Assembly (NCBI GenBank): GCA_022448425.1
Contig: JAKVCY010000187.1
Coordinates: forward strand, 127 to 64,126
Reading direction: 5' to 3'
Source of the DNA: Thalassotalea sp.
GTDB lineage: Bacteria > Pseudomonadota > Gammaproteobacteria > Enterobacterales > Alteromonadaceae
Length of the DNA stretch: 64,000 nt
Shown here: in pieces, positions 4,194 through 23,300 of the stretch
How the letters are laid out: each line of letters begins with the position of its first letter
Position numbering within the stretch: position 1 is the first letter of the stretch
The notes under the pieces: generated by a model
Databases searched by the model: none
What the model saw: the letters and a program-made list of their open reading frames with translations, nothing else
What the model was told of the DNA's origin: nothing
Program-made: the position numbers and the translations under genes

Positions 4194-4478
4194 ATGTTCA
4201 CATTTCCTGCCGAGTTAACAATAGCTAACGCAGAACAATTTAAGGAAGCTCTGCTGGCGTATCAATCCGAAGAGCCAAATTTTCCCATTAATGATGAGGC
4301 CGTAGTCAAAATTGACACCATTGGTGTCCAATTGATTATCGTCACGCTCTACTATCTTTTATCGTTGAATAAAACTATTGAGTGGCAATGCAAGTCTCCT
4401 GTTGTAAGAGAGAGTATTGCCAAGCTGGGTGTAAAAGATCCTATGGTTTTGCAGTATTTGGATGCGCAAGGTAATTAA
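4194..4478 (+). CDS. STAS-domain protein (first gene of F7-type che operon)
   Basis: LTIANA...V.KIDTIGVQL STAS pattern; RBS AAGGA; position before cheY as in F7 clusters. Confidence 0.8.
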   Translation: MFTFPAELTIANAEQFKEALLAYQSEEPNFPINDEAVVKIDTIGVQLIIVTLYYLLSLNKTIEWQCKSPVVRESIAKLGVKDPMVLQYLDAQGN

Positions 4479-4502
4479 AATTAGAAATAAAGGAATTTTA
4501 GA

Positions 4503-4865
4503 ATGGCCAAAGTGCTTGTTGTAGATGATTCAAATTCAATTCGTGACATGGTGAGTTTTACGCTCAAAGGGGCGGGCCATCAAACTGTGGAAGCAGTGAA
4601 TGGTCAAGAAGGGTTATCGAAAGCCCAAGCTGGTGGTTTTGATTTAGTAATTTCTGACGTCAATATGCCGATTATGGACGGTATTACTTTGTGTCAAGAA
4701 CTAAGAAAACTCCCTAGCTTTAAATTCACGCCAATTTTAATGTTAACGACTGAAAGCTCTACAGACATGAAAATGAAAGGTAAAGCTGCTGGCGCAACGG
4801 GTTGGTTAGTTAAACCGTTTAATCCAGACAAATTATTGTCAACAATCAAACGTGTAATCAGGTAG
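4503..4865 (+). CDS. cheY: Chemotaxis response regulator CheY
   Basis: Single REC domain: VVDD, SDVNMP, LTT, KP. Confidence 0.93.
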   Translation: MAKVLVVDDSNSIRDMVSFTLKGAGHQTVEAVNGQEGLSKAQAGGFDLVISDVNMPIMDGITLCQELRKLPSFKFTPILMLTTESSTDMKMKGKAAGATGWLVKPFNPDKLLSTIKRVIR

Positions 4866-4871
4866 CTAGTT

Positions 4872-7076
4872 ATGAGCGTCGACCTATCGCAGTTTATTCC
4901 GACTTTCTTGGCAGAAAGTTTTGAAGGCTTAGAAATTATGGAGTCCGGGTTATTAAACCTAGAAGCCGGCGATAGTGAAATGATCAATGCCATATTTCGC
5001 GCTGCTCATTCGATAAAAGGAGGAGCTGGCACATTCGGTTTCGGTCATGTCACTGAATTCACGCATTTGGTTGAAACCTTGTTGGATGAAATGCGTGATG
5101 GTCGACGTGAAATTAATCCACAAGAAAAAGAAGTGCTACTCGCTTCAGTAGATTGTATTCGCTTGATGATTGAAGCGATTCAAAATGAAAACGAGTATGA
5201 TGATACATCTATCGTGATGGTAAGTGTGCAGTTATCAGAACTGCTAGCGAATGGCAATGAGCCAGCTCAGACCGACAAAGGTTTAAGCAGTTCGTCAGAG
5301 CCACTCGATTTGACACCATCAAATACCACTAAATGGAATATTCTGTTTATACCTGAGCACCACTTAGTGCAAACAGGTAACGATCCGTTGTTATTGTTCA
5401 GCGCTCTAGAAGATTTTGGAGAGTTAACGGCAACAGCCGTGTTAGACAACTTACCTTCAATTACTGAAATGGATGTGGAAGAGCTCTGCATGCATTGGCA
5501 ACTTACACTCATTTCTGATAATGCAACGGAAGACGATATTCGTGAGGTATTTGAATGGGTAGAAGATGAGTGTGAGCTGACAATTTCTGAGGAAGAGCTT
5601 GAGCAACCTATGCAAGAGGAGAGTGGTTCAACTGAAACTGGAGAACACGAGAACGGATCTGTTGACGCTACGCCATCGTCAGAACAACAATTGTCCAATG
5701 ACGACGAACAGTTGACTCAAACTGACTCTACTGCTGATACAAATAAAGCTGACAGCCAAGCAAGCAATGTAACTGCGTTATCGCCCAGTACTGACGATAA
5801 CAACTCTCCAAAGGCACCGAAAACACCAGCTAAATCTAAAGCAAAAACTGACCAAGGTTCGATTCGAGTGGGCGTCGACAAGGTTGATAGCTTAATTAAC
5901 CTTGTTGGTGAGCTTGTCATCACGCAAAGCATGCTGTCCGAGTTGGGGAATGATTTTGATCTATCAAAGGTTGAGAAATTAACCGCAGGTCTAGAGCAGT
6001 TGCTACAGAATACTAAAGAATTACAAGAAAGCGTTATGCGTATTCGCATGCTACCTATTAGTTTCGCATTTAACCGCTTTCCTCGATTAATTCATGATTT
6101 GTCGATGAAAACCGGCAAAGATATAGAGCTCATTATTAACGGTGAAAATACTGAACTAGATAAGACGGTTATGGAACAGATTGGTGATCCATTGGTGCAC
6201 TTGGTGCGCAATGCGGTTGACCATGGTATCGAACCTGTAGAGAAAAGGCTCGCTGCGGGTAAATCTGAAAAAGGTACTATTTGGCTAGATGCTTACCATC
6301 AAGGCGGCAGCATCGTCATTGAGATTCGAGACGATGGTGGCGGCATAAATCGTGACGCAGTGTTTAATAAGGCTGTCGAAAAAGGCTTAGTTGAGCCCAA
6401 CGCCACCTTAACCGATAACCAAGTCTTTGAGCTTATTTTCGAGCCTGGGTTTTCCACAGCCAAACAACTTAGCGATATTTCGGGCCGTGGCGTTGGGATG
6501 GACGTTGTTAAGCGCAATATTCAATCGCTTGGCGGCCGTATTCAAGTTGAATCAACGAAAGGTCAGGGCAGTACGTTTAAAGTACATTTACCGCTGACAC
6601 TAGCTATCTTAGATGGTCAGTTAGTAAGAGTGGGCGAAGAAGTTTTTGTTGTGCCACTGATTACCATTGTAGAGTCGCTTCAGGCAAAACCTGAACTCAT
6701 TAATAAAGTATCGGGCGACATGATGCTGTATCGATTGCGAGAAGACAATGTCCCGGTAATTCCTATCTTCCAATTGTTTAACCTGCCGGCTGAAAGTCAG
6801 TCAGTAGATAATTCTTTGCTCGTAGTAGTCGAGGCTGACGGGCAGAAGGTAGGCCTGATGGTCGACGATCTACTCGCACAGCAGCAGGTTGTAATTAAAA
6901 GTTTAAAAGATAATTATCAGGACGTAGCGGGTATATCCGGTGCAACAATTCTCGGTGACGGCTCTGTAGCAATGATCGTAGACGTTCCCGGGATTATTCA
7001 GATGGCACTTGAAATAGCACAGCAAAAGCAGAAACAGCGAAACAACGTTTACCAACTAGAAGGAGCGCTTAACTAA
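4872..7076 (+). CDS. cheA: Chemotaxis histidine kinase CheA
   Basis: P1 FRAAHSIKG, long acidic linker, dimerisation domain, HLVRNAVDHG, SGRGVGMDVV, C-terminal CheW-like domain. Confidence 0.96.
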   Translation: MSVDLSQFIPTFLAESFEGLEIMESGLLNLEAGDSEMINAIFRAAHSIKGGAGTFGFGHVTEFTHLVETLLDEMRDGRREINPQEKEVLLASVDCIRLMIEAIQNENEYDDTSIVMVSVQLSELLANGNEPAQTDKGLSSSSEPLDLTPSNTTKWNILFIPEHHLVQTGNDPLLLFSALEDFGELTATAVLDNLPSITEMDVEELCMHWQLTLISDNATEDDIREVFEWVEDECELTISEEELEQPMQEESGSTETGEHENGSVDATPSSEQQLSNDDEQLTQTDSTADTNKADSQASNVTALSPSTDDNNSPKAPKTPAKSKAKTDQGSIRVGVDKVDSLINLVGELVITQSMLSELGNDFDLSKVEKLTAGLEQLLQNTKELQESVMRIRMLPISFAFNRFPRLIHDLSMKTGKDIELIINGENTELDKTVMEQIGDPLVHLVRNAVDHGIEPVEKRLAAGKSEKGTIWLDAYHQGGSIVIEIRDDGGGINRDAVFNKAVEKGLVEPNATLTDNQVFELIFEPGFSTAKQLSDISGRGVGMDVVKRNIQSLGGRIQVESTKGQGSTFKVHLPLTLAILDGQLVRVGEEVFVVPLITIVESLQAKPELINKVSGDMMLYRLREDNVPVIPIFQLFNLPAESQSVDNSLLVVVEADGQKVGLMVDDLLAQQQVVIKSLKDNYQDVAGISGATILGDGSVAMIVDVPGIIQMALEIAQQKQKQRNNVYQLEGALN

Positions 7077-7600
7077 TGGACATTCAAGCTTTAGCGCAAG
7101 AGATCCCAGTAGAAGGAGAGTACTCTCTTGAAGGAATCGACTTCATTACCAATGGTGAGCAATATTTAACTTTTGTGTTAGATACGGAGCACTACGCAGT
7201 CGATATTCTTTGCGTTGAAGAGATACGCAGTTGGGAAAAACCGACGAAAATTCCTAACGCTCCGACACATGTTAAAGGTGTTATCAATATGCGCGGTGTC
7301 ATAGTTCCAGTCATTGATTTGCGTATTAAGTTTGGGATAGGTGAAGTGGCCTACTGTAAAACGACCGTTGTTATTGTCCTGACGTACGAATCCGATGCTC
7401 AAAGTCGCACAATAGGCTTTGTGGTAGATGCTGTGTCAGACGTACTAAATGCTGAAGAAAGTGAGATCAAAGCAGCCCCTGCGTTTGGTGGCATTATTCC
7501 ACACCATTACGTTAACGGTTTGGTTAATGTTGGTGAAGGCGTAGTGACACTGTTAGATGTTGAAGCACTTCAGCAAATTGAACCTCATGAAGTGGGGTAA
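7076..7600 (+). CDS. cheW: CheW adaptor 1
   Basis: YLTF..., VKGVINMRG.IVPVIDLR, GFVVDAVSDV; TAATG overlap with cheA stop. Confidence 0.93.
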   Translation: MDIQALAQEIPVEGEYSLEGIDFITNGEQYLTFVLDTEHYAVDILCVEEIRSWEKPTKIPNAPTHVKGVINMRGVIVPVIDLRIKFGIGEVAYCKTTVVIVLTYESDAQSRTIGFVVDAVSDVLNAEESEIKAAPAFGGIIPHHYVNGLVNVGEGVVTLLDVEALQQIEPHEVG

Positions 7601-7604
7601 CACA

Positions 7605-8090
7605 ATGGAACAAGAATACTTAACCTTTTTACTCAATGGCGAAGAATTTGGCGTAGATATTTTGTGTGTACAGGAAATTAGGGTGCTGAGTAAAGTAACA
7701 GAACTACCTAATAAACCTGACTATTTGAAAGGCGTGATAAATTTACGTGGTGTCATTATTCCTATCGTTGACTTGAGACAACGGTTTGGCAAAGAGCCTA
7801 TGGAATATAACGATAAAACGGTCACTATCATTTTGAAGAGTCAAGATTCAAGAAATCCTTCAATTGTCGGCATTATTGTCGATGCGGTATCTGATGTATA
7901 TAAATTTAGCGTAAGTGATATTCGACCTTCGCCGTCGCTTGGAAATCAAATCGACAATTGCTTTCTTAAAGGCCTAGCGACTGTCGAGAGCAAGTTAATC
8001 ATATTGCTTGATACCAACAATTTATTAAATCAAAACGAACTTTTTACAGTAGACAACGAAGTAGAAGAAGCTGAGTTGCTTGTCGATTAG
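7605..8090 (+). CDS. cheW: CheW adaptor 2
   Basis: GVINLRGVIIPIVDLR; start moved from 7557 to ATG 7605 (MEQEYLTF) just after the cheW1 stop. Confidence 0.92.
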   Translation: MEQEYLTFLLNGEEFGVDILCVQEIRVLSKVTELPNKPDYLKGVINLRGVIIPIVDLRQRFGKEPMEYNDKTVTIILKSQDSRNPSIVGIIVDAVSDVYKFSVSDIRPSPSLGNQIDNCFLKGLATVESKLIILLDTNNLLNQNELFTVDNEVEEAELLVD

Positions 8091-8117: not shown

Positions 8118-10817
8118 ATGACACCAAAGCAAAACATTGCAGTTATCGAAAGCTGGAAAAAAGTACAGCCGATTGCATCTCAAGTCTCTCAGGTTTTTTA
8201 TGACGACCTTTGCGAAAAACATCCAAGTCTCAAGGCTTTTTTAGGCGAAGAGCTTTCGATCGCGAGAGACCAATTGGTGGCTAACCTAAATTCACTGGTT
8301 GAGACTTTAGTGGCAACTGATGAAGTTGTCATCGAAGACTTAGCAAAACATTTGCGTATTGGATTGGCTCCCGAGCAGTTTTCAGATGTAGGGCCTGCTT
8401 TATTAACATCTCTGGAAGTTGGACTTGAAAAAGACTTTACCGCGACAGTAAAGCGAGCATGGACAGCTCTGAATAAGTTAATTGTGGCAGCGATGGCACA
8501 ACAAGGCGCAAAGGGCACACCTTTAAATAAAGGAAACAAAGAGACTATGGGTACATCTGCCACTACTGATAACGAATTGGCCGTTAGGCTTCAAGGCGCA
8601 TTAGACCAATCTTCAACTGCATTCATGATGATCGATAGAGATTTTATCGTGACTTACGTGAACCAAGCGACGATGGATTTATTATCTGAGCATGAGGCGA
8701 CATTTCAAGTGAAGTGGCCAAACTTTGAAGCGGATAAAGATAAGGTTATCGGCTCATGTATCGACGTGTTTCATGAAAGGCCAGAGCATCAGAGAGAGTT
8801 GTTATCGGATGCGTCAAATTTGCCGTGGAAAACAGATATCCCAATTGAATATCTAACAATAGAAATTAACGTTACTGCGATTCATGACGGGGATGGCAAT
8901 CACATAGGCAACTCACTCGAGTGGCAAGATGTAACACAAGCCCGACACCAAGAAAACCAAGCTGTTCAGTTGCAAGGTGCCGTTGACCAATCAAATACGC
9001 CAAGCATGTTTATCGATCGTGATTTCAATATCACTTATGCGAATAAAGCTACATTGCAACTGTTGAAAAAGCATGAGGCAGTATTTGCTACAAAATGGCC
9101 AGGCTTTAGAGCAGATAAAGAACAGTTGATTGGTACTTGTATCGATGGATTTCATGTAAACCCTGACCATCAGCGTGCGTTGTTAGCTGATCCGAGTAAC
9201 CTTCCTTGGACTACCGATATTCATATTGAGCACCTTACTTTTGAACTCAACGTGACTGCGATAAACGATGCTCAGGGTAATTACATCGGCAATTCGCTGG
9301 AATGGCAGGATGTCACAGAAGTGCGCGATAAAGCGGTGCAAGTTGGACGCTTAATGTCAGCCGTTGAAGGTATGACGACCAATCTAATGATGGCCGATAC
9401 CAAAGGTAACATCGTTTATGCAAACCCTTCAGTATTAAACATGTTACGTCGACGAGAAGCTGAGTTAAAAGCGGTTTTACCTGCCTTTAACATTGATACG
9501 CTCTTGGGTACTAATTTTGATTCGTTCCATAAAAACCCAGCTCATCAACAAAATTTGTTAGGTAATCCTGATAATTTGCCTTATACCACAGAAATTTCTG
9601 TTGCAGGCTTGGCCTTCCAATTAATTGCGATACCACTAAGAGATGATAAGGGCGTGCACTTGGGTAGTGCAGTGCAATGGCTTGACTTGACAGAGCAAAA
9701 AGACACGCAAAATCAAGTTGAAGGCCTGATTAACGCGGCGATCTCTGGAGAGCTAACTCGTCGTATTGATACGTCAAATTACGAAGGGTTTATGAAAAAA
9801 CTTGGCGACAATATTAATAGTTTGATGGACGCTATTATCGAGCCGATAAATGATGCTATAAAGGTTGCTCAAGCGCTCGCTGATGGCGATCTTACGCAAG
9901 CGATGAATGGCGATTATGATGGCGAATTCTTAGCTCTTGCAGATGCCATGAATGATTCGATCGACAATTTGAGTAACATGGTTGACGAAATTCGCGATGC
10001 CTCGACCAATGTATTTGATTCGGCTAGAGAAATTGCCGAGGGCAACAACGAGCTTAGCCACCGCACAGAATCACAAGCCTCAAGCCTCGAAGAAACTGCG
10101 TCTGCAATGGAGCAATTAACCAGTACCGTACAGCAAAATGCGGAGAACGCGACGGAAGCAAGTAAGCTCTCTGCCAATGTTGTGACTAAAGCCGTAAATG
10201 GTGGCGATGTGGTTAAAAATGCTATTACCGCGATGAGTGATATCAATAAATCGAGTAAGAAGATTGCCGATATCATTAGCGTGATCGACGAAATAGCCTT
10301 CCAAACAAACCTACTTGCATTAAATGCTGCGGTTGAAGCCGCTAGAGCTGGCGAGCAAGGACGTGGTTTTGCCGTTGTTGCAGCCGAAGTACGTAACTTG
10401 GCACAACGCTCAGCAGGGGCTGCTAAAGAGATTAAGGGATTAATTAACGATAGTGTTGACGCTGTAAGTCAGGGTACGAAGCTCGTTGACGAAACAGGCC
10501 AAACATTTGAGCAACTTGTTAGTGCTATTGAAGAAGTAGGCAAGATGATAAACGATATCGATAGCGCAGGTAGAGAACAATCTGCTGGTATTGGAGAGGT
10601 TAGTGCGGCAGTTAGTCAAATGGATGAAATGACACAGCAAAATGCTTTACTAGTTGAAGAAGCTGCCGCGTCAAGTAAGTCAATGGAAGAACAAGCTCAA
10701 TTGCTACTGCAGCAAGTTGATTTCTTCAACAATGGCGAGGACGTCGAGGCGGATGCCAAACCAGTGAGGGCTGCTCCAACTAAGTCAACTCATTCCAACA
10801 AGGTATCAAAAACCTAA
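8118..10817 (+). CDS. Soluble Aer2-like chemoreceptor: globin + 3 PAS + HAMP + MCP signalling domain; C-terminal EWEEF tail out of frame (natural end probably 10885)
   Basis: No TM segment; globin helices with FY and LAKH; three PAS repeats with D.FH..P.HQ and EW/QW; [33 protein letters not shown] hairpin tip. Confidence 0.9.
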
Positions 10818-10893
10818 ACCGCCAACAAGAGAGCGCAAGCCGGTTCGACAAAACTGAGTCAGATGATGAATGGGAAGAGTTTTAGGCCAGTCA

Positions 10894-11739
10894 ATGACTA
10901 ACAATAGGGACAAAGCGTATCAGTTAAGTAGCCAAGACTTTAAATTTGTCTGCGACTATGTGTATGACGCAGCAGGCATAGTGCTAGGCGAGTCTAAGCG
11001 TGAAATGCTCTATCGCCGTTTGTCTAGGGTGATAAGAGAACGCGACTTATCAAGCTTTACGGAGTATTGCCAAATACTTCGAAAGCACCCTGAACGCGAG
11101 CAGACATATTTTATTAATGCGGTAACGACGAACTTAACTAGCTTTTATCGAGAAAAACATCATTTTGAGTATTTGCAGAACTATGAATTTCCTAAGCTGT
11201 TAACGCAAAACCTAGCGTCAAAACGTGTTCGAATATGGTCCTCTGCTAGTTCGACTGGTGAGGAGCCCTATAGTTTAGCGATAACAACTTACGAAGCGTT
11301 CAAGTCGTTACTAAGCCAATGGGATGTGAAGATACTTGCGACCGATATCGATAGTAATGTAATAGCCACCGCAAAAGCCGGCGTTTATGACAAAACACGA
11401 ATAGAAGGGATTCCGGGGCAAATCAGAAAGCGCTTTTTTCAACAAGGCACTGGAAACAATCGCGATAAGTTTAAGGTGGTGAGTTCAGCGAGAGATCTGA
11501 TTACGTTCAAAACGTTAAATTTGTTGCATGAATGGCCTATGAAGGGCCCTTTTGATGTGATTTTTTGCCGTAATGTGTTGATTTATTTTGACAAAGAAAC
11601 ACAGCTTTATTTGTTTGAACGCTATTACAATATGTTAAAGCCAGGTGGCTTACTTATGTTGGGACATAGTGAGAGTTTAGGTGCATTTCAGCCATATTTT
11701 GAAAATGTTGGCCGCACAATTTTTCGTAAGCCAGTTTAA
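10894..11739 (+). CDS. cheR: Chemotaxis methyltransferase CheR
   Basis: TTNLTSFYRE, WSSASSTGEEPYS, ATDID, CRNVLIYFD; start at ATG 10894 preferred because ATG 10870 overlaps the receptor tail. Confidence 0.93.
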   Translation: MTNNRDKAYQLSSQDFKFVCDYVYDAAGIVLGESKREMLYRRLSRVIRERDLSSFTEYCQILRKHPEREQTYFINAVTTNLTSFYREKHHFEYLQNYEFPKLLTQNLASKRVRIWSSASSTGEEPYSLAITTYEAFKSLLSQWDVKILATDIDSNVIATAKAGVYDKTRIEGIPGQIRKRFFQQGTGNNRDKFKVVSSARDLITFKTLNLLHEWPMKGPFDVIFCRNVLIYFDKETQLYLFERYYNMLKPGGLLMLGHSESLGAFQPYFENVGRTIFRKPV

Positions 11740-11768
11740 GTTGAGATTGGTTTTACAGAGTATTAGAG

Positions 11769-12431
11769 ATGTTAAGAACCGCAGAAAGGATTGAGGTTAA
11801 GTCTGTGTTGGCTAAATGCCTTCCAGAGTTTAAACACATTAACCATTATTGGGACAAACAAAGAAATATTGTCGTCGCTAAGATTTTGCCCGGAGAGTTC
11901 TATATGACCTCAAACGCGCTGACAATTTCGACTACATTAGGTTCATGTATCGCTGCTTGTATATGGGATGACCGAATGGGGATTGGTGGGATGAATCATT
12001 TTATGCTGCCAATCACTGATAAAAGCATCAACGAGGTTGACTGGGGAAGTCGAGGGTTAGCAAGTGATGCTTATAGATATGGCAATTTCGCCATGGAGCA
12101 CTTGGTAAACACCATTTTAAAAAATGGAGGTTATCGAGATAATTTGAAAGCCAAGGTTTTTGGTGGTGGCAAAGTATTGAAAAAAATGTCTGACGTTGGA
12201 GAACGTAACATTGATTTTGTGTTTGATTACTTATCAACTGAGAAAATCTCTGTTGTTTCGTATGATGTAGGATCGATATATCCGAGAAAGGTACTGTTCG
12301 AGCCAACGACAGGGAGAGCATTTGTTAAAAAACTTGATAACCTATCGAATGACACTATTGCACAGCGGGAACAAGATTACCGTTCGAGTATTGATAGTGG
12401 CCATGTTGAAGGCGATGTCGAGCTGTTTTAA
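11769..12431 (+). CDS. cheD: Chemoreceptor glutamine deamidase CheD
   Basis: PGE, TTLGSCIAAC, GGMNHFMLP, KVFGG; C-terminal extension ending GDVELF. Confidence 0.93.
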   Translation: MLRTAERIEVKSVLAKCLPEFKHINHYWDKQRNIVVAKILPGEFYMTSNALTISTTLGSCIAACIWDDRMGIGGMNHFMLPITDKSINEVDWGSRGLASDAYRYGNFAMEHLVNTILKNGGYRDNLKAKVFGGGKVLKKMSDVGERNIDFVFDYLSTEKISVVSYDVGSIYPRKVLFEPTTGRAFVKKLDNLSNDTIAQREQDYRSSIDSGHVEGDVELF

Positions 12432-12448
12432 CTAGCGGGTGAAAGGAT

Positions 12449-13531
12449 ATGAAAAAGATTAAGGTATTAATCGTTGATGATTCGTCTGTTATCCGAGGGT
12501 TAGTAAAGGAAATTATTAATCAGGATAGCGAGTTGGAAGTTGTTGGCGAGGCTCAAGACCCATATGTTGCACGCGATAAAATAAAACAGCTTAATCCGGA
12601 CGTTATTACGCTAGATGTAGAGATGCCGAAAATGGACGGCATTACCTTTTTGAGCAATCTCATGCGTTTAAGGCCTATGCCGGTAATTATGTTATCGACG
12701 CTGACTGAGAATGGTGCCGACATTACTTTGAAGGCACTAGAGTTGGGTGCAGTCGACTTCATTACCAAGCCTAGCTTTGAGTCTTTACTAGAGAATCGCA
12801 TGGTATTCAAAGATGACTTGATCGCAAAGATAAAGTCAGCCGTTGGCGTTGATCAAAAAGGGTTACAATTAGCCTCAACACTAAGAAAGTCAGATAACCA
12901 ATCAATTCTCTCCTTTACTGGTTGTAAGCGTAGTAATCATATAGTAGCCATTGGTGCGTCTACTGGTGGTACTGATGCAATTAAATCGATTTTGACGAGA
13001 CTGCCCAGTAATAGTCCGCCTATTGTAATAACACAGCACATACCACCAAAGTTTAGTGAACGATTTGCCAATAGACTCAATGAACATTGTGCTGTCACGG
13101 TTCAAGAAGCTAAACACGGACAAAAAATTAAGACAGGTAATGTGTATATTGCGCCGGGTGATCAACACTTAGTCGTTGTAGCAAAAGGCGGTGCGCTTTT
13201 CTGCACGTTAACTGATGAAGCACCAGTCAACAGGCATCGACCAGCGGTCGATGTGTTGTTTAATTCACTTTTACCCATGGCGGATAACGTTCAAGCGGTA
13301 TCGCTAACCGGCATGGGAACTGACGGTGCTAAAGGGATGCTGGATTTAAAAAATGCCGGTGCGAGAACAATTATTCAGGATAAAAATACCAGCTTAATTT
13401 GGGGAATGCCGGGCAGTGCGCATGCACTTTCTGCACATTCATCTGTGCTACCTTTAGATAAAGTTGCATTTGAAGTCCTTGATTTTGCGAAATTATCAAT
13501 AAAAGAAATGAAAGAGGTTGTAAATGGCTAG
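12449..13531 (+). CDS. cheB: Chemotaxis methylesterase CheB
   Basis: REC (TLDVEMP) + esterase [25 protein letters not shown]. Confidence 0.95.
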
Positions 13532-14717
13532 TGCCAATTTAAAACAAACTCTAATTGCGACACTGGCGTTGTCACTATTGTTATTGCTCAATGAATGGGT
13601 GCTAAATATTGGGGCGCTCAATACTGCGTTTTACCTGTTACTTATTGCGGCAGCAGGTTACGGATTGTTCTCTATGCAAATTCTTGATCAGCATCAGGGT
13701 GATGATCAAGATTTAGAAGGGGTTATTACTGAGGAAGTGAACCGATCGTTCAATGAGTTAGTAAGAGATTTAAAGGCCGTAATTGAACAAGAAACCTTGG
13801 TTCTATCTCAAGAGCATGAACGAGTTTCTATGTTGGTCAGAGATGCTGTCTTGGGTATTTCAGAGAGTTTTAAGTCGCTTCAGCAATTGAGCGCTGAACA
13901 GCAAGGTATGATTGAACACTTGATTAACTTTAATCAAAACCTCGGTGATGATGAAGAAACTAGCCTTGAGACGTTTGTCCAAGGTTCTAACAGAACATTG
14001 GAGAATTTTGTTGGTGTTATTATCAACACAAGTAAGCAGAGTCTAGAAACTATGGGATACACTGATGAAATGGTATCCAAGTTTGACAGCATATTTTCCC
14101 TTCTCGAGCAGGTAGAGGGCTTAGCGACTCAAACTAACTTATTAGCTCTTAATGCGGCAATTGAAGCAGCACGAGCAGGTGATGCTGGTCGCGGTTTCGC
14201 GGTAGTTGCTAATGAAGTAAGAGCGCTTTCACAGAACTCAACCGAATTAAATAACAACATTCGTGGACAGATATCTTCAGCACAAGAAACGATTGCTAGC
14301 TTGAGAAAATCGGTTGAAACTATAGCGTCAGCTGATATGAATCCTACACTTGAGGCGAAGCATCAAGTGATTGTCATGATGCAACACATTGCAGATGTGA
14401 ATAATAAAACACAAGGTGCGGTGGAAGAGTTGGCGTCTATTGCACCGCAAATAGCGGATGCCGTAACTACCGGTGTACGTGCATTACAATTTGAAGATTT
14501 GACCTATCAATCACTTGATTCTTTGACATTTAACATTAATAACTTAGTTAATATTAGTGAGCAGCTAGGCGACTTGGAAATTGATGCTAATATTGTGATA
14601 AAGCTGACATCTTTACATGACCAGTGTCAGGAACTTTTAACCAACTCAAAACAAGCTAATCAAGTACGCAGTGTCTCGCAGTCATCAATGGATGAAGGTG
14701 AAGTAGAATTATTTTAA
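13524..14717 (+). CDS. McpA/CttP-like chemoreceptor without periplasmic sensor
   Basis: Two adjacent N-terminal TM helices, [18 protein letters not shown]-terminus GEVELF like P. aeruginosa McpA. Confidence 0.85.
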
Positions 14718-14732
14718 CGAGGAGCTCGATAC

Positions 14733-15041
14733 ATGACCGTAAAAAAAATAACTAGTGATAGCGGTAAAGACGTTACCATTTCAATCGAAGATCGATTTGA
14801 TTTCTCGCTACATCAACTTTTTAGAGATAGCTATGCTGACTCAACTGCCAGCGGTAGTAAATTTACGCTAGACCTTTCAAAAACGTCTTATATGGATAGT
14901 TCAGCGCTTGGCATGATCTTGCTATTGAAAGATCACGCTGAGAAGATTAGTGGCAGCGTTACTATATCTAAACCGAGCGAACCAGTCGCAAAAATTCTGG
15001 AAATTGCGCAATTTAATCGCTTGCTAAAAATCGAGAAATAG
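14733..15041 (+). CDS. STAS anti-anti-sigma-type protein (HsbA/SpoIIAA-like)
   Basis: LDLSKTSYMDSSALGM contains the phosphorylatable Ser motif. Confidence 0.85.
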   Translation: MTVKKITSDSGKDVTISIEDRFDFSLHQLFRDSYADSTASGSKFTLDLSKTSYMDSSALGMILLLKDHAEKISGSVTISKPSEPVAKILEIAQFNRLLKIEK

Positions 15042-15043
15042 CA

Positions 15044-16762
15044 ATGGCAAGCGCACTCGAGCGTCGTTACAAATTAGCACTGGTTGTTGATGATTCAGTA
15101 ATGCAGTGTAAGGTATTGAGCGTGCTGCTCAAGGAGGAGGGCTATCGAGTCTTTACTGCCAATGACGGTGCTCGTGGTGTGGAGATGTACATAAAGTATC
15201 AGCCGGATCTGGTACTTATGGATATTAACATGCCGGTGATGGATGGCTATGAAGCAGCAAGGCAAATTAAAGCCTTGTCTAAACATACCCTTGCACCACT
15301 TATTTTTATCACCAGTATTGATACTGACCAGGCATTTATCGACAGTATTGAAGCAGGTGGTGACGGAATACTTGTCAGGCCATTTTCGCCAGAAGTTTTT
15401 AAAGCGAAGATAAAATCCATTCAGCGAATCAGTGATTTATACATACAGGTAAAGTCACTTCAACAAGCACAGCAAAAAGATGCTGAACTAGCTGAACAGT
15501 TGATGTCAGGTGTAATTGAATCAAGAAACTTCGCACTTGACCGCATCGGAATTGTTAAAAAAGCGGCTGAACTTTTTAGCGGTGATATTCAGTTAACAGC
15601 TCAATGTCCTAATGGCGATGTCAACGTATTACTTGGAGATTTCACAGGGCACGGGTTACGTTCGTCTATTGGCGCAATACCGCTAGCTGAAACCTTCAGG
15701 GTGATGACGAGGAAAGGCTTTTCACTTTTCGAAATCATCAGCCAATTCAATAGTCAACTATATGACTTACTTCCATCAGATCTGTTTTTAGCTGCAACAT
15801 TTATTAGTGTTTCTAGTCAAGACTCTACTGCATACATCTTCAATGCAGGACTTCCTGATACTTATATTTACAGTGATGAGGGCGAGGTTAGTCACAAACT
15901 TGGTTCGAGTCACCCACCATTAGGTGTATTGGAAAGTTTATTGCCTGGTAGCCAGTTAAGGGTTGTTTACATTAAAGATTCTGATCGCATATTGACACTT
16001 AGTGACGGGATTATTGAAGCGCGCAATGCCGATGGTGAAATGTATGGTATTGAGCGTTTCGAGCAAGCTGCTGAGTTGGGCTTTAGAAATGGCGCAGTGA
16101 CAGATACCATTGTTGCTGACTTAGAAAGCTTCTGTGAAGGAACGCTGCAAGAAGATGATATTTCTCTTATCGATATTCCATGTAACGGCTGGGAACCTTC
16201 CTTGTCTGTGGCACATTCAACTGTCGCTTCGGTAAGCGATGTAGAGTTTCAAGAGATCAAGCAAACAGGCGCTTCTTGGAGTTGGAAGCTAGTGCTCATT
16301 GGTGACAAACTCGCGAAAGTAAACCCTATCCCTATGGCCATGAGCTATTTGCACGAAATAGAGGGAAACAGCGAACAGTGGCAAAACCTCTACACTATTT
16401 TAACTGAGCTTTTTATCAACGCTTTAGATCATGGAGTGCTTGGGCTTAGTTCCGATCTCAAAAAAGAAGCAGAGGGTTTTGCACTATACTTTCAGGAGCG
16501 AGAGGAGAGGTTAAAGCAACTTGCGGTAGGTTCAGTAGAGATAATGTTGAACTTTGTGCGTGCGGAAGCAGGTGACGAAGTCGTTATAGAGGTTAAGGAC
16601 AGTGGAAATGGCTTTGATTTCGAGAAGGTACAAGAAAAGTTACAAGAAACTTCAGAATTATCATTGAGTGGTAGGGGAATTCAGCTCGTCTCTAAGCTTT
16701 GTAATGGTCTATATTATAAAGATAAAGGAACGCACGTAATCGCTAAATATGCAGTGAACTAA
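15044..16762 (+). CDS. REC-PP2C(SpoIIE)-Ser kinase fusion (HsbR-like)
   Basis: REC LMDINMP; PP2C LGDFTGHG, SDG, EDDIS; HATPase ELFINALDHG, DSGNGF, SGRGI. Confidence 0.87.
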   Translation: MASALERRYKLALVVDDSVMQCKVLSVLLKEEGYRVFTANDGARGVEMYIKYQPDLVLMDINMPVMDGYEAARQIKALSKHTLAPLIFITSIDTDQAFIDSIEAGGDGILVRPFSPEVFKAKIKSIQRISDLYIQVKSLQQAQQKDAELAEQLMSGVIESRNFALDRIGIVKKAAELFSGDIQLTAQCPNGDVNVLLGDFTGHGLRSSIGAIPLAETFRVMTRKGFSLFEIISQFNSQLYDLLPSDLFLAATFISVSSQDSTAYIFNAGLPDTYIYSDEGEVSHKLGSSHPPLGVLESLLPGSQLRVVYIKDSDRILTLSDGIIEARNADGEMYGIERFEQAAELGFRNGAVTDTIVADLESFCEGTLQEDDISLIDIPCNGWEPSLSVAHSTVASVSDVEFQEIKQTGASWSWKLVLIGDKLAKVNPIPMAMSYLHEIEGNSEQWQNLYTILTELFINALDHGVLGLSSDLKKEAEGFALYFQEREERLKQLAVGSVEIMLNFVRAEAGDEVVIEVKDSGNGFDFEKVQEKLQETSELSLSGRGIQLVSKLCNGLYYKDKGTHVIAKYAVN

Positions 16763-17019: not shown

Positions 17020-18183
17020 GTGTTAGAAAAAAAATCGGTTCTTATTATTGATGATGATATGCAGTATTTAGAGTTGCTGTCTGAGTGTTTAGAGAATTCT
17101 TTTGCAGTTAAGGCCGCCTGTTCTATTTCTCATGCAGAGTCTATCGTAGAAGAGAACGGTAAATTTGATATTGCGCTTGTTGATGAATACATCGGTGATG
17201 ACATTGGTTCTGATTGGATCAAAACATCGGTTGATATAGGCAGTGTAGCTAGTTCGTTTGTCTTGTACTCTGGTTTGGCGACTGAAGACGCCATTATTAA
17301 AGGCTTAGAATGTGGTGCTGATGACTTTCTTGCAAAACCAATCTCTTTACTGACGTTAGAACAAAAGTTAACCAAGCTCATTAATTATCAAAATAAAATT
17401 GAGGGCTTTGAGAGCGAGTTAAGTTCAAAAGAACGTGTTATCAATGTTTCTATGGCACAGGCTTCCAAGTATGGTGCCTGTATGCAACTCACTTCACGTT
17501 TAAACCATTGCTTTAGTTTGGATGAGATAAGAGACGAACTTTTTTCATTTCTGTACGGAATGAATTTACATGGCTGTGTAGCATTTTATCCTCTGTCGGG
17601 TCAGCCGCTATTCTTCAGTTCTAAAAATGGTGTTTGTTCACCGGTAGAAGTAGAAGTGATGGAGGTCCTAAAGAGAAAACCACGTCTGTATCGTTTTGGA
17701 AACCGAACTATATTTAATCACCCATTGGCTTCTATTTTAATTCTGCATTTAGAAGAGGGCGCCATTGACACTGATATTTACATTGACGCCCTTGCGTCGG
17801 TAATACAGTGTGTAGGTGCTCGTATTGCATTTATTACTTACAAAAATTCGCTTGTTGAAGTTCAAGAACAAATTCAACAGGCGGTTGTTACGACCAAGAA
17901 AATGATCGAAATATCAAAACGGCATCAACAAGAGGTAATGAATGAGATTGTTCAAAATATTGGTATGAGTTTTCATGAATTGGATATGAATGAAGCCCAA
18001 GAGGACTATTTAACCGAGCTTATTCATAACGCCCTTAAACGACATACACAAGATGACGTTAACTTCCTAGAAGTGACTCGATTATTAGATGATGCCTTAT
18101 CAAGTGTCGACAAACTTAAATCACTCAATCAAGAGCAGCGAGTAGTGCCGCCAGAGCTTGATGAAGATGATGAGTTATTTTAA
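17020..18183 (+). CDS. Response regulator: REC + uncharacterised GAF-like/coiled-coil region
   Basis: IIDDD, LVDE, YSG, AKP receiver residues; about 260 aa C-terminal region ending EDDELF. Confidence 0.75.
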   Translation: MLEKKSVLIIDDDMQYLELLSECLENSFAVKAACSISHAESIVEENGKFDIALVDEYIGDDIGSDWIKTSVDIGSVASSFVLYSGLATEDAIIKGLECGADDFLAKPISLLTLEQKLTKLINYQNKIEGFESELSSKERVINVSMAQASKYGACMQLTSRLNHCFSLDEIRDELFSFLYGMNLHGCVAFYPLSGQPLFFSSKNGVCSPVEVEVMEVLKRKPRLYRFGNRTIFNHPLASILILHLEEGAIDTDIYIDALASVIQCVGARIAFITYKNSLVEVQEQIQQAVVTTKKMIEISKRHQQEVMNEIVQNIGMSFHELDMNEAQEDYLTELIHNALKRHTQDDVNFLEVTRLLDDALSSVDKLKSLNQEQRVVPPELDEDDELF

Positions 18184-20360
18184 TGTCAAACGTGCTCTCA
18201 GCAATAGAAGAACTTCCTTTTCCAGTTATCTCTATAGATAATAATGGCAATATCTTTACGTTGAATACATTAGCATCTAGCAAGTTTGAATACGAGGAAA
18301 CTGAACTTGCCGGCAAACCTCTTTCTTCGCTAATGACTACGCTTCAGTGTGAAGTGTTTGAGAACAGAAACAATGGCAACGCAAGTAATCAAAAGCATGA
18401 TCGTTGTGATTACAAAGTCATTACGAAATCCTGTAAATGGTTATATTTTTCTGGTTATCAAAAGCGCTCTGGCGACTTGGTTGTTTATTATTTTACAACT
18501 GAAGTAGATGAAGTAGATGAAATTCTTACCCAGTTTAGCCAAAGTCGTTCACTTATCTCACAACTTAAAGAACAAAATTCCTATCTGAAAATGGCTGAAA
18601 AAATCAGTCATTCCGGTCACTGGCGTTATTGTGTTGAAACAAGCTTTATGTTTTGGTCAACTGAGCTATACAATATTTTCGGCACTACCCCTGATAAATT
18701 TACCCCTTCGTCTGAGAATGATTTTGCTTTCTATGCCCCTTCAGAGCGCGATGAAATTAAGCAGCGGTTCTTTCAAAGTATATCTTTAGGAAAGCCTTAC
18801 TATCACAAATCATCGATAAAGTTATCTTCAGGTAGAAAGTTACGGTTAGAGATTATTGGCGAGTGCGAATTTGATAGCGCCGGTAAAGTCACTGCGCTGT
18901 TTGGCATATGCCGAGACGTCACTCAGAACGAGATTGTTTTCGAAAAACTGAAGTTATTGGCAATGGTGAACTATACCATTAAAGTGCCGATATTTTTTAT
19001 CGATGAACAAGACCACGTGGTTTACCAAGAATTGTCTCCTCAAGGCATGGCCTCTGGCGATGCAGGTTTGTTTAATAACATCAATTTTACCATTGAGGAG
19101 TATTTGTTATTTAAAAAAACGGCGAAAAAATCTGGCCAATTAAAAAGAACTCATGTGAGTTTTGACGAGTTCAACACTGTGTTTGATTTTTCAGTTACCT
19201 ACGAAGCACAGGAAGGAATTTACATTTGGATTGTTGAAAATGTAACGGAGAGGTTTCGCAAGGAGCAACAGCAAATTATTAGTAACCGCCTCGCTTTGCT
19301 AGGAAATACCTATGGCGGCGTTTCCCATGATATCAACAATATTTTAGGTGTTGCGCTTGGCGCTATTGAAATGTTGGAGATGAAAGTAGCGATGGGAGAA
19401 CAGAGTATCGCTAAGTATATTGATAGGGTGAAGAATGCTATCGACAAAGGTAAAGGAGTTACCGAACGACTACTTGCTTTTACAAGAAAGCCGATGGTGA
19501 AAGTCGTAGAGTTCGACCCGGTTCAGGAAATCATCGATAACAAGTACTTATTTCAACAAATGCTAATGAGTCCAATAATAAAGTTGTCATTTGATTTGCC
19601 CCTAGAACACTGCACCATTAATTTCCCTAAGGGTGAGTTCATCAATATTCTTTTAAATCTTGTTTTGAACTCTCAAGATGCCATCAAGGAGCAGGGGTTA
19701 AACGGCGAAATAAAAGTTTCAGTGACTTACAATGAAAGTGGTAGTGTCGAAATACACGTAATTGACAGTGGTATCGGTATCGAGTCGGAAAACATTGGCA
19801 AGATCTTTGACCCTTTTTATTCAAGTAAATCCGTAAATAAAGGGAATGGGATAGGGCTCGCGAATGTTTATAGCACTGTTTATAAACACAATGGCGAGAT
19901 AAAAGTGCAGGGGAAATCTTCTTTAGGCGGCGCACACTTTATGCTGTCTTTCCACTGCAAACGAGACGCGCTTATTCCTGCGAAACAAGAAGACAACACA
20001 GGACAAGATTTAATTGCTCAGTCTCGAATTTTGATACTTGATGATGAGGAGAGTATTGCTGAGTTTGTAGCGCTTTTTCTCGCCGATTTGGGTGCTAAAA
20101 CCGTAAAGGTATCTGACAAAGAAGCGCTTATTGATGCGGTCGAACATAAAGGGAAATTTGATATCTTTATCACCGATATGATTTTGCCCGAATTGACAGG
20201 TAAAGAGGCTGTTAGTATCGTCAAGCGCCATCAGCCGGATGTCCAGATTTTATCGATGAGTGGCTATATCGATAGCGAAGACGATAACTGGCCTTATCCA
20301 TTATTACGTAAACCATTTAATTCAGGAGAGCTTACTGAATTTTTAGCTCATTTGGGTTAA
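18183..20360 (+). CDS. Cytoplasmic PAS-PAS hybrid histidine kinase with C-terminal REC
   Basis: H-box GGVSHDINN, NLVLNSQDA, DSGIGI, GNGIGL; REC LDDEE...ITDM...KP; no TM. Confidence 0.88.
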   Translation: MSNVLSAIEELPFPVISIDNNGNIFTLNTLASSKFEYEETELAGKPLSSLMTTLQCEVFENRNNGNASNQKHDRCDYKVITKSCKWLYFSGYQKRSGDLVVYYFTTEVDEVDEILTQFSQSRSLISQLKEQNSYLKMAEKISHSGHWRYCVETSFMFWSTELYNIFGTTPDKFTPSSENDFAFYAPSERDEIKQRFFQSISLGKPYYHKSSIKLSSGRKLRLEIIGECEFDSAGKVTALFGICRDVTQNEIVFEKLKLLAMVNYTIKVPIFFIDEQDHVVYQELSPQGMASGDAGLFNNINFTIEEYLLFKKTAKKSGQLKRTHVSFDEFNTVFDFSVTYEAQEGIYIWIVENVTERFRKEQQQIISNRLALLGNTYGGVSHDINNILGVALGAIEMLEMKVAMGEQSIAKYIDRVKNAIDKGKGVTERLLAFTRKPMVKVVEFDPVQEIIDNKYLFQQMLMSPIIKLSFDLPLEHCTINFPKGEFINILLNLVLNSQDAIKEQGLNGEIKVSVTYNESGSVEIHVIDSGIGIESENIGKIFDPFYSSKSVNKGNGIGLANVYSTVYKHNGEIKVQGKSSLGGAHFMLSFHCKRDALIPAKQEDNTGQDLIAQSRILILDDEESIAEFVALFLADLGAKTVKVSDKEALIDAVEHKGKFDIFITDMILPELTGKEAVSIVKRHQPDVQILSMSGYIDSEDDNWPYPLLRKPFNSGELTEFLAHLG

Positions 20361-20396
20361 CGTAGTTTGACTTACTTATAATATACAGAGCCTTAT

Positions 20397-23300
20397 ATGC
20401 ACGGCGGTCCGAATCAAAATAAACAAAGAGGCTTTCTTTCACTTAGGTACAAGCTCACAGTAACTAGCTTTCTGGTATCGCTTGTAGCTGCCTTAGTGAT
20501 TTATTCTAGCTTTTATTTTCAAGGACGAAATATTCTCGACGAAAGCGCAGAATATGAAGTGCAACAAGAAGTTGATTTCATTGCGCCAGTAGTGAGTAAT
20601 TTAGTTAATCAAGCTCTTTTTGACACAGAGATTATCAGCAAAGCGCCAACGCTCAATGAATTGATAGCTGCCCATGTGAAAAACAGAGCTACCGACTCTC
20701 TGCAACTTGATAGTATAACTGCCATTGTCAACGGCATGCTTTCCCTGGCCGTTAGTGGCAAAAGCGAGTTTGCCCATATGATGCTAAGAGATGAAAGCGG
20801 TCAAATTCTTGCCCAAAGTCAGAACGAACGATTATCTCAAGAGTTTTACGCACAAATCCAAGATATTGCTCAGAGAGCAATAATTGAAGAAGGCGTAACA
20901 GCGAACAACCAATCAGTTTCTTTTAAATTTTTTACGCCACAAACTAGTTCGGCAAACAATAGTGGTTCTAGTTCAACAAATAGAAGTGGGGAGCAACAGT
21001 TATTCACTCAAGATAAAGCAGATATTAGGGGTTACCTAATTATCTTTAGGCAGATTGGTGCTTCCAATGAGTCGCCATTGTTTTTGGTCGCGACTGTAGC
21101 ACTTGAAAGCATTATGTCGGTAATAGATGCATTCCAGCGTGATGATAAATATTACTATCTCGTCGCCGCTGATAGCACTGTAGCGTATCAAACCGCAGAT
21201 ACTCGGCAATTAATTGAAGCCGAAACGAGTGTAGGCGAAGAGATAGTAAAATTAGTAAACAGTGATGTTTCTGCTTCGTTTGTTAGCCTAGATGAGGTGA
21301 TGCAGCATTCGATTAGTATTGCGTTTGCCCATCGCTTATCTTTCTCAGAAGGGAAAGTGCTATCTCCTTTATACCTGATTGCGTTACATCGAGAAAATCG
21401 ATTGGCGCAGGCGTTCAATCGACTAGAAGGACAAGCTATTGTTGTCGGTGTTTTGCTTGCTATTGCTATTTCTGCGCTTTCACTGCTTTTAGCCAACCGC
21501 TTAGTTCGACCTATGCTAAGCATGATGAAAAGCATTGAAGTATATGAAGAGACGGGGAAAATTGAGGCATTGCCAACGATCAAAAATGACGAAGTTGGAC
21601 GTTTAGCGCTGAGCTTTAAAAAAATGGTAGCCAGTGTTCAACGGCATCAAGCCTCATTGCTGGAAGTTGTTGATAGAACAAATCATACATCCAAGCTCTT
21701 GCAATCTGTCTTAGACTCGCTGCCGGACGCTTTAATTCGTGTAGATAGTGATGGGCATATTATTGCCTTTAATCACGCCGCAGAAACTATGTTTGATTAC
21801 ACAGAATCCCGGGTTTCAGGCCAACACTTTGGTTTGTTGATGCCCTATGAATTCAACCAAAGATTTCCAACGTTTCAGCAGTATATCGATGAGCAACAGG
21901 ATAAACCTTATCGCGGAGATGGCGATGAACAATCGGCAATTCGAAGAGATGGTGAGATATTCCCTGTTTTGATTAATTACAGTGTTGTTAATGCGGATAC
22001 TGTCAAGTCATACACTGTGACAGTTAAAGACAATACCTATTCTAAACTCCTAGAGTCGGAGCGTTTGGCTGCGCTTAAGGAAACTAAAGATCTTGCATGG
22101 CGCCTAGATTTTGCCCTGTCCGCGTCGCAAGTGGGAGTATGGGAGTTCAATAGCCAAACCAATCGTTTATCTTGGGATAAACGCACGTATCGACTTTATG
22201 GTTTTGAAAATAGGGATAATGTTTACCCTGAACAAGTTTGGCTAAAATCTATTGACGCCGAGTACCGAGAAACGGTCAAGTCAGCCATAAACGACTCGCT
22301 TAAAACCGGTCAAAATTTACATCAAATATACCGCGTTAATCTACCCGCGGGGAACTCAGTGTTTCTCGAAACTCATGCCAAGGTAATCTTTGAATCGCAG
22401 GGTAAGTATCATCGTATAGTGGGAACTAGCCAAGATGTTACCGAACAACACCTATTGGATGAATTAAAGCAGAATGCCCTTGATATGGCTGAGGATTCAC
22501 TGAAACTAAAATCAGAATTTCTTGCCAGTATGAGCCACGAAATTCGTACCCCTATGAATGGCGTCCTCGGCATGCTTGGTTTACTCGGAAATAGTGAGTT
22601 GACTAAACAACAGCAACACTATTTAGAACTTGCCAGTTCAAGCGCTCACTCATTATTAGATTTACTTAACGATATCCTTGATTTCTCTAAAATTGAAGCT
22701 GGAAAAATTGACATTGAGAATGTTGATTTTAATCTTACTCAACTGTTTTGCAATGTAGCGGAGTCGTTTGCTTTCAAGGCCCAAAAGAAAGACGTTGAAT
22801 TAGTACTAGATGTAGCCAACTTGAATGGCGTAGATGTTAGTGCCGATCCCACGAGAATCAGGCAAATTCTCACTAATTTAATCAGCAATGCCATCAAGTT
22901 TACAGAGCAAGGTGAAGTGGTTGTAAAGGCAGAGGTTAAGCCTATGTCGGACGGCGTTGAGCTAACTTGTTCGGTGCAAGACTCTGGCGTAGGCATTGAA
23001 AAAGAGCACATAGATAAGCTTTTTGATTCATTTACTCAAGTCGACTCTAGTACAACGCGTAAGTATGGTGGTACAGGACTTGGACTTGCGATTGTTAAGA
23101 AACTTTGTAATTTGATGGGTGGTGAGATTGAGGTAGAGAGTAAGTTAGGTCAGGGGAGTATATTTAGCTTCAGCTTAGCTTTACAAAAGTCAACGAAATT
23201 TAGACATGCTATCCAAAGTTTAGATGAAAAAGAATCAACTGATGTGAAAGGCTCTAGTCATTCTGCTCAGTTTGAAAACCTAAATGTGTTGATTGTTGAT

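Follow-up and report, generated by a model that had tools for sequence, protein, structure and literature searches.

A globin tethered to an Aer2-like receptor with three predicted PAS-haem domains in a chemosensory cluster of Thalassotalea sp.

What does a globin do at the head of a chemoreceptor that already appears to carry three haem-binding PAS domains? The question is raised by an open reading frame (ORF) on the forward strand of a 64,000-nucleotide stretch of Thalassotalea sp. DNA (contig JAKVCY010000187.1, positions 127 to 64,126), which is called the window below and to which all coordinates refer. An earlier interpretation of the letters alone (the sequence-only reading) had described positions 8118-9690, corresponding to residues 1-524 and containing the globin and all three PAS domains, as the sensory part of an Aer2-like receptor with up to four haem sites of two folds. 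Our analysis suggests that the protein is an Aer2 receptor with PAS-haem O2 sensing like that of VvAer2 from Vibrio vulnificus, that it belongs to a 'stage 1' F7 chemosensory cluster, and that it bears a tethered accessory globin with a rebuilt pocket. We put the probability of this reading at roughly 0.62. The predicted parts of the receptor gene are as follows.

8118..10817, + strand: whole receptor ORF, 899 amino acids (aa) plus TAA; globin, linker, PAS1, PAS2, PAS3, di-HAMP unit and 36H kinase-control module.
8118..8510, + strand: globin domain (aa 1-131), 3-on-3, Hell's Gate globin I type; Tyr28 at B10 (codon 8199), Leu42 at CD1 (8241), Ala49 at E7 (8262) and His78 at F8 (8349).
8511..8576, + strand: tether between globin and PAS1 (aa 132-153), polar and unconserved.
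8577..8933, + strand: PAS1 (aa 154-272); E-eta His219 (8772-8774), I-beta Trp269 (8922-8924), DxT motif at 271-273; counterpart of VvAer2 PAS1.
8991..9314, + strand: PAS2 (aa 292-399); His346 (9153-9155), Trp396 (9303-9305); counterpart of VvAer2 PAS2, the modulator domain.
9366..9689, + strand: PAS3, the 'Aer2 core' sensor (aa 417-524); His471 (9528-9530), Tyr489, Leu502, Trp521 (9678-9680), DxT motif at 523-525.
9744..10037, + strand: di-HAMP unit (aa about 543-640); Pfam HAMP_2 at 556-618 and HAMP at 572-619; alignment of structure 3vol to 408-621.
10038..10730, + strand: kinase-control module (signalling module of a methyl-accepting chemotaxis protein, MCP), 36H class; gapless alignment to Tsr; methylation-site analogues E659, Q666 and E848.
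10804..10885, + strand: decayed C-terminal tail; a +1 indel gives the TAA at 10815-10817, an A-run near 10846 has a -2 indel, and EWEEF followed by a stop stands out of frame at 10868-10885.

The receptor ORF is uninterrupted from 8118 to 10817, with an AGGA ribosome-binding site 8-11 nt 5' of the ATG. Pfam finds a Globin match at aa 57-126, three PAS regions, HAMP_2/HAMP at 556-619 and MCPsignal at 685-839. The NCBIfam profile NF041847 ('aerotaxis transducer Aer2') scores 1069.6 bits, with aa 147-896 running colinear with profile positions 29-778. In a search against solved structures, aa 408-621 match the PAS-HAMP structure of Pseudomonas aeruginosa PaAer2 (3vol) at 6e-47, and aa 415-525 match PAS2 of Vibrio cholerae VcAer2 (6ceq) at 1e-31. 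PAS3 alone matches 6ceq at 2e-32 and the PaAer2 structures 3vol and 4hi4 at about 2e-26, its His471 and Trp521 aligning to the FH and QW of PaAer2 and of VcAer2 PAS2. The 3vol alignment, together with Pfam HAMP_2, HAMP and MCPsignal, places the di-HAMP unit and the kinase-control module directly after PAS3, which is the 'Aer2 core' arrangement. Residues 572-875 align without a gap to residues 217-520 of Escherichia coli Tsr, and the module is therefore assigned to the 36H class. The maximum of the Kyte-Doolittle 19-residue window is 1.3, so that the protein has no predicted transmembrane segment and should be soluble. The haem His, I-beta Trp and methylation-site positions are invariant among 44 aligned homologues, and the best matches to the gene in species-representative genomes, from Thalassotalea and from metagenome-assembled genomes of Alteromonadaceae, reach 70-75% identity; among sequencing runs, none contains over 72% of the words of the gene. 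Judged by its sequence, the protein belongs to the Aer2 family in every respect tested, bar a lost C-terminal pentapeptide and the NF041847 cutoff, both taken up below. The profile score and the 3vol and 6ceq matches thus bear out the Aer2-like identity proposed at the outset.

The three PAS domains also show the haem-type motifs that the sequence-only reading had described. Each has the His motif (His219, His346 and His471) and a terminal Trp motif (EW at Trp269, EW at Trp396 and QW at Trp521), with a His-to-Trp spacing of 50 residues in all three. The G-beta position is occupied by Trp in PAS1 and PAS2 and by Tyr in PAS3; the H-beta position, which we take to map as in the PaAer2 numbering, is Ile, Leu and Leu in PAS1, PAS2 and PAS3. 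Three five-stranded PAS folds are predicted in the full-length AlphaFold2 model with a predicted local distance difference test score (pLDDT) of 78-88, and they are followed by helical connectors at 273-291, 400-416 and 525-542. The proposed 127-codon duplication of PAS1 and PAS2 held as well: the two units start at 8589 and 8970, share 80/127 residues (63%) and align with a score of 439, compared with -39 +/- 14 for shuffles. Their DNA identity is 65%, falling to 43% at third codon positions, which indicates that the duplication is old. This age explains why a DNA-level repeat search across the receptor gene found none, the duplication being visible at the protein level alone. PAS3 is 30-40% identical to PAS1 and PAS2.

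How such a PAS array works can be judged from its closest characterised counterpart. VvAer2 and LiAer2 both contain three PAS-haem domains, and VvAer2 was characterised in 2022 (PMC10107281), so the baseline of the sequence-only reading, one or two PAS domains in characterised Aer2 receptors, is outdated. The 807-residue VvAer2 has haem ligands His101/228/353 and O2-stabilising Trp151/278/403 (PMC10107281). Adding a constant offset of 118 to these numbers gives His219/346/471 and Trp269/396/521 of the window protein, and the same offset converts the predicted methylation sites E541/Q548/E730 into E659/Q666/E848. The PAS1-PAS2-PAS3-diHAMP-36H layout, the kind of che cluster and the solubility are all shared. 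The two receptors differ at both ends and at one PAS position: VvAer2 begins with a 37-residue N-terminus, whereas the window protein has a globin of 131 residues and the tether; the EWEEF tail, lost here, is present in VvAer2; and the window protein has Trp, not Tyr, at G-beta of PAS1 and PAS2, with Tyr in PAS3. PaAer2 (PA0176/McpB) and VcAer2 (VCA1092) share the core of haem PAS, di-HAMP and 36H tip and the F7 cluster context; PaAer2, however, has a tri-HAMP N-terminus and one PAS domain, VcAer2 has two PAS domains, and neither has a globin. By these residue correspondences, the PAS part is a known design that has already been characterised in VvAer2, and the window receptor most probably works like VvAer2.

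All three PAS domains of VvAer2 bind pentacoordinate b-haem with similar O2 affinities; reversible signalling comes from PAS3 alone, while PAS2 modulates it and PAS1 is largely dispensable (PMC10107281). By homology to VvAer2, VcAer2 and PaAer2, each PAS domain of the window receptor would hold a b-type haem on its E-eta His (His219, His346 and His471). O2 bound to the PAS3 haem would be hydrogen-bonded by Trp521, and the O2-induced change would pass through the DxT motif and the helical connector to the di-HAMP unit and on to the 36H kinase-control tip, which would control the CheA/CheW array of the cluster. PAS2, and perhaps PAS1, would modulate PAS3 instead of signalling independently. The sequence-only reading had gone further and suggested multi-range sensing of O2, NO and CO. 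The nine characterised Aer2 PAS domains share similar affinities for O2, and neither VvAer2 nor VcAer2 responds to CO or NO (PMC10107281). The similar affinities and the lack of a CO/NO response weaken the multi-range idea, which finds no support on the PAS side.

The N-terminal domain is a globin, as had been read from Phe27-Tyr28 and from His78 in 'LAKH'. The Pfam Globin profile (PF00042) gives 23.2-25.7 bits, where 22 is the cutoff, and its match covers the C-terminal half only. A phmmer comparison with Hell's Gate globin I (HGbI; 3s1i) gives E = 5.8e-10 and aligns Tyr28 to B10 (HGbI Tyr29) and His78 to F8, and in the search against solved structures aa 4-124 match HGbI (3s1i/3ubc, 1e-8) and neuroglobin. 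The AlphaFold2 model of aa 1-140, built on an alignment of 40 sequences, has a pLDDT of 90.2 and a predicted template modelling score of 0.84; its helices span 3-34, 36-66, 73-80, 85-106 and 109-131, with helix F in place. The top 50 Foldseek matches in the PDB are all 3-on-3 globins (neuroglobin, phytoglobins and flavohaemoglobin; 3s1i with TM scores of 0.74/0.79). Structure prediction, with a normal globin fold here and the three PAS folds above, is thus in agreement with the sequence-only reading.

The family of this globin separates the receptor from better-known sensors. The profile of the family globins aligns gaplessly to HGbI 3s1i at 9e-37 and matches the globin of HGbRL (3wfw) at 4e-35. 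PF00042 matches 39/40 relatives and Protoglobin (PF11563) matches 7/40, weakly; the window globin matches PF00042 only. The nearest unfused relatives are stand-alone globins of ~138 aa annotated as 'globin family protein' or 'hemin receptor'. A Tyr B10/Gln E7 globin group of the flavohaemoglobin lineage that has no helix D has been described (PMC4476040). By profile and predicted fold, the window globin is a member of this F-family group, of the HGbI type. HGbI and HGbRL, both from Methylacidiphilum infernorum, fall into one group with the receptor family, and HGbRL, a globin fused to Roadblock/LC7, is a precedent for the same globin type in a putative sensor fusion (PMC4476040). What sets the window globin apart from both is Ala at E7, Leu at CD1, a helix F that has been shortened, and its fusion partner, which is a chemoreceptor.

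HemAT and other globin-coupled sensors likewise carry an N-terminal haem globin on a soluble MCP, but their globin belongs to Protoglobin PF11563, whereas here it belongs to Pfam Globin PF00042 and has an HGbI-like fold. No HemAT or other sensor globin was found among the top 50 Foldseek matches or the top 60 profile matches. In globin-coupled sensors the globin is the sole sensor and is coupled directly to the output, while in the window receptor a disordered linker and three PAS-haem domains follow it. Membership of the HemAT-type sensors was rejected on both grounds, the globin family and the indirect coupling. A different candidate was Cc_4972 of Corallococcus coralloides, in which PAS and a globin are combined on a cytoplasmic MCP; this PAS + Bac_globin + MCP architecture is an in-silico prediction, for which improved O2 sensing was proposed, and it is also listed for Colwellia sp. 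MT41 (PMC6194562). There, however, the globin is of the truncated 2-on-2 family PF01152, which 0/40 members of the present family match, and identity with that architecture, including the Colwellia sp. MT41 case, was rejected.

The connection between the globin and PAS1 is unlike the others in the protein. The PAS-PAS and PAS-HAMP connectors are conserved and helical, whereas residues 133-153 have a pLDDT below 50 in the full-length model. Across about 95 relatives the equivalent linker has 25-48 residues, with up to ~95 in Thalassomonas, and the ratio of nonsynonymous to synonymous substitution rates (dN/dS) of the tether is 0.37-0.54. The direct globin-to-output coupling of globin-coupled sensors is absent, this disordered, length-variable linker intervening. 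Such a tether, disordered, variable in length and here of 20-30 residues, should leave the globin without the rigid helical link by which sensor globins drive their outputs, and unable to act on PAS1 in that way. Linker disorder in the model and linker variation among relatives lead us to infer a globin that is tethered, not rigidly coupled, and to favour reversible docking, local gas binding or scavenging, or packing and localisation as its role. Most likely it would be an accessory haem module that the receptor array keeps locally concentrated; it might offer a second binding site for O2 or NO and dock reversibly on the PAS layer, or it might act as a buffer that shields the PAS haems. The variable N-terminal domains of Aer2 receptors are a named open question (PMC10107281, section 3.5).

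A number of observations weigh against the reading of a VvAer2-like receptor with an accessory globin. The NF041847 score falls short of 1200, the equivalog cutoff for Vibrio, as expected because the receptor is a non-Vibrio orthologue. The AlphaFold2 model of the full-length protein, built as a monomer, has modest confidence (mean pLDDT 69.9) and is uninformative on globin-PAS contacts. The function of stage 1-2 F7 systems has been stated to be unclear (PMC7184735), and the loss of the pentapeptide could signal a receptor heading to decay. Full-text literature searches turned up no published description or test of a globin-Aer2 fusion. The other points concern the globin itself. The family consensus has nearly invariant Tyr B10, Phe CD1, Gln E7 and His F8, yet the window has Ala49 at E7, where 39/41 relatives have Gln, and Leu42 at CD1, where 38/41 have Phe; three residues are deleted in its clade, flanking helix F on either side. 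Against 41 homologues the window globin has a median identity of 39%, compared with 69% for a typical member. Finally, the relatives P0117 (Gln), P0077 (Arg) and P0118 (Pro/none) keep the globin domain without His F8, and their persistence means that the selected function of the globin may not need haem.

These pocket changes are shared, and they are confined. The clade consists of the window, P0002 (97%), which also has no Phe adjoining CD1, and P0006 (90%). It has Arg at E8 and Gln at E10, where the others have Gly and Lys, and Gln-Phe in place of His-Tyr in the FG region. The divergence is limited to the region from B to F, which forms the pocket; helices A, G and H are still family-like, and the other receptor domains show 65-89% identity, equal for the window and a typical member. 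In an exhaustive search of 1.84 billion representatives, the closest single-domain matches were the N-terminal globins of Colwellia-type receptors, at 42-44% identity. These matches and the family-like A, G and H helices indicate that the globin diverged in place, and we rejected the idea that the odd globin had arisen by a domain swap. When the window globin alone was used as the query of a word-indexed search, no match was returned, which reflects a limit of the tool and not a real absence. The globin of P0081 is also strongly diverged.

A globin that binds haem poorly or not at all would account for the same changes. It would be a structural module of this lineage, serving dimerisation, array packing or polar localisation, and the PAS domains would do all the gas sensing. 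The loss of the CD1 Phe and the E7 Gln, the E8 Gly to Arg and FG His-Tyr to Gln-Phe replacements, the three-residue deletion at helix F, the burst of lineage-specific change in the globin alone, the Pfam score barely over its cutoff for half the domain and the F8 His-less domains of P0117, P0077 and P0118 are all points in its favour. HAMP1 of PaAer2, which reportedly has a clustering role, is a precedent for a structural module, as is the non-haem globin of RsbR, and a flexible tether is compatible with docking or packing. Non-haem globins in general provide a further precedent (PMC4476040). On the other hand, none of the three clade members has lost His78 or Tyr28, which 39/41 and 38/41 of the other relatives, respectively, also have; E11 still holds Leu, B9 Phe and helix H its Trp; the fold predicted by AlphaFold2 is that of a normal globin, helix F included; and the globin dN/dS (0.13 against P0002, 0.10 against P0006) points to purifying selection within the clade, with constraint across the whole domain. 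We regard the structural module as doubtful. The retained His F8 and Tyr B10, with purifying selection, suggest a changed ligand affinity rather than a dead domain. We therefore favour a globin whose distal pocket has been rebuilt in this clade and which is still functional, with haem binding plausible.

A bolder alternative grants the globin more than an accessory part, as a working fourth haem sensor of a different fold that docks on the PAS-haem layer and tunes it. The pocket of the clade would then have been retuned in its affinity for ligands or its choice of them: O2 might be bound less tightly than before, for instance, or the site might now sense NO or redox state. We consider this proposal possible, but tentative. 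The up to four haem sites of two folds in the sequence-only reading fare accordingly: four potential sites are present, whereas the globin site, having neither E7 Gln nor CD1 Phe, is less certain than was assumed. If the fourth sensor were real, two haem folds would be combined in one receptor, and a single receptor chassis would come with two naturally occurring variants of the pocket. If the globin merely buffers gas or packs the array, the outcome would be a modest refinement of annotation.

The favoured reading of an accessory globin on an Aer2 receptor must also accommodate the C-terminus. The window ORF ends 23 codons before the end of its relatives, essentially all of which (~118) finish with an xWxxF pentapeptide, usually EWEEF; the CheR tether pattern x-[HFYW]-x2-[HFYW] is absent from the window ORF. 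The +1 base is seen where the window reads TCAAAAACCTAAACC and P0002 reads TCAAAAG-CTAAACC, and it creates the TAA. Since both indels lie in or beside A-runs, the premature stop might be a sequencing or assembly error in homopolymers, and the true protein would then have 922 aa ending in EWEEF. Logan contigs of two metagenome runs (X1, 775 bp; X4, 315 bp), however, are identical to the window over 10400-11041 and reproduce both indels, with the caveat that the window may share their source study. A third run (X3) carries the intact form of the 97% relative, and two independent errors within 40 bp are improbable. A sequencing error was accordingly judged unlikely as the cause of the truncated tail.

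If the lesion is real, the receptor might instead be decaying, the frameshifts being first steps of pseudogenisation and the odd globin a sign of relaxed constraint. Two separate indels did destroy the last 23 codons and an EWEEF that nearly every relative keeps. The pentapeptide is regarded as a fundamental Aer2-like feature, and copies without it are known only in genomes that also have a tethered copy (PMC7184735); no second Aer2-like gene was found within the window, which has one. Yet the ORF is still open over 899 codons, each domain has a dN/dS of 0.04-0.13 when compared with the intact 97% relative, the flanking che genes are all intact, and only an unstructured tail has been removed (pLDDT below 50 from residue 871 onward). 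P0002 and P0006 combine the odd globin with intact tails, which makes the odd globin older than the truncation. Decay in this sense seems very improbable. We read the truncation as real and, given the low dN/dS in all domains, as falling short of whole-gene pseudogenisation; with the CheR/CheB-tethering pentapeptide lost, adaptation is probably weakened.

The fusion is not peculiar to this receptor. Our survey covered the best 120 protein clusters related to the receptor and the best 79 Aer2-like loci of species-representative genomes. About 100 of the 120 clusters start with the same globin and contain 3, 4, 5 or 6 PAS-haem motifs. Among the 79 loci, 19 carry a fused globin with 1-5 PAS domains; they come from Colwelliaceae, Alteromonadaceae, Cellvibrionales, Spongiibacteraceae, Thioalkalispiraceae and Methylophaga-like bacteria, and Tyr B10, Phe CD1, Gln E7 and His F8 are kept in all of them (19/19). 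The combination of globin, 1-6 PAS-haem domains and MCP is common in marine Gammaproteobacteria. The sequence-only reading had allowed that its architecture might already be common and characterised; the fusion is indeed common and the tri-PAS part has been characterised in VvAer2, while the literature on the fusion itself, as noted, yielded no paper. A globin of the HGbI/flavohaemoglobin lineage in front of an Aer2 core would represent a coupling of globin to chemoreceptor distinct from that of HemAT. The family also provides a set of natural experiments, with 1-6 PAS-haem copies, with canonical, remodelled and His-less pockets, and with and without the CheR-tethering tail.

Two globin subtypes occur among the fused loci. 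The second and more distant one ('LE.SF..LA...FY') was seen at loci L008-L018, L022, L034 and L045, in Thioalkalispiraceae, Methylophaga-like bacteria and unclassified Gammaproteobacteria; the fusion could be old, or could have arisen twice. The number of PAS domains is 6 in P0001, P0003 and P0004, 5 in P0007-P0020 and 4 in P0021-P0050, and P0052 (Vibrio profundum) has 7 and no globin. The extra copies resemble PAS2, and the identity between neighbours reaches 100%, a sign that the 127-residue cassette has recently been amplified in tandem.

The output of the receptor can be considered from its neighbours. The receptor lies between a cheW and cheR, and an mcpA-like gene is part of the cluster, whose upstream half (4194..8090) and downstream half (10894..16762) are composed as follows.

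4194-4478, + strand: weak STAS-like ORF.
4503-4865, + strand: cheY.
4872-7076, + strand: cheA.
7076-7600, + strand: first cheW.
7557/7605-8090, + strand: second cheW; orthologues have 161 aa and start at about 7605, so the ORF-list start at 7557 is probably too early.
10894-11739, + strand: cheR; orthologues have 281 aa and start at about 10894, and the ORF-list start at 10870, which falls within the decayed receptor tail, is probably too early.
11769-12431, + strand: cheD.
12449-13531, + strand: cheB.
13524-14717, + strand: mcpA-like gene for a short membrane MCP; it ends in EVELF, with Val second.
14733-15041, + strand: STAS protein gene.
15044-16762, + strand: REC-PP2C(SpoIIE)-HATPase_c_2 protein gene, CrsA/CrsR-like.

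This is the 'stage 1' F7 gene order of PMC7184735. McpA of P. aeruginosa likewise has Val at the second position of its pentapeptide, which prevents CheR binding (PMC7184735). The homologous Che1 cluster of Shewanella includes CrsR/CrsA, a partner switch that controls RpoS (PMC9855816). The resemblance of the STAS and REC-PP2C-kinase genes to Shewanella CrsA/CrsR makes a stress-response partner switch likelier than flagellar steering, and by this analogy we infer that a stress-response output is at least as likely as motility. The name 'aerotaxis receptor' may therefore overstate the role in motility. The receptor relates in this way to the role of ancestral stage-1 F7 systems, which is an open question (PMC7184735). 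On the 3' side of the cluster, positions 17020-24683 contain three further signalling genes.

Within 17020-24683: response regulator, 387 aa.
Within 17020-24683: PAS-HisKA-HATPase-REC hybrid kinase, 725 aa.
Within 17020-24683: PAS-PAS-HisKA-HATPase-REC-REC-Hpt hybrid kinase, 1428 aa.

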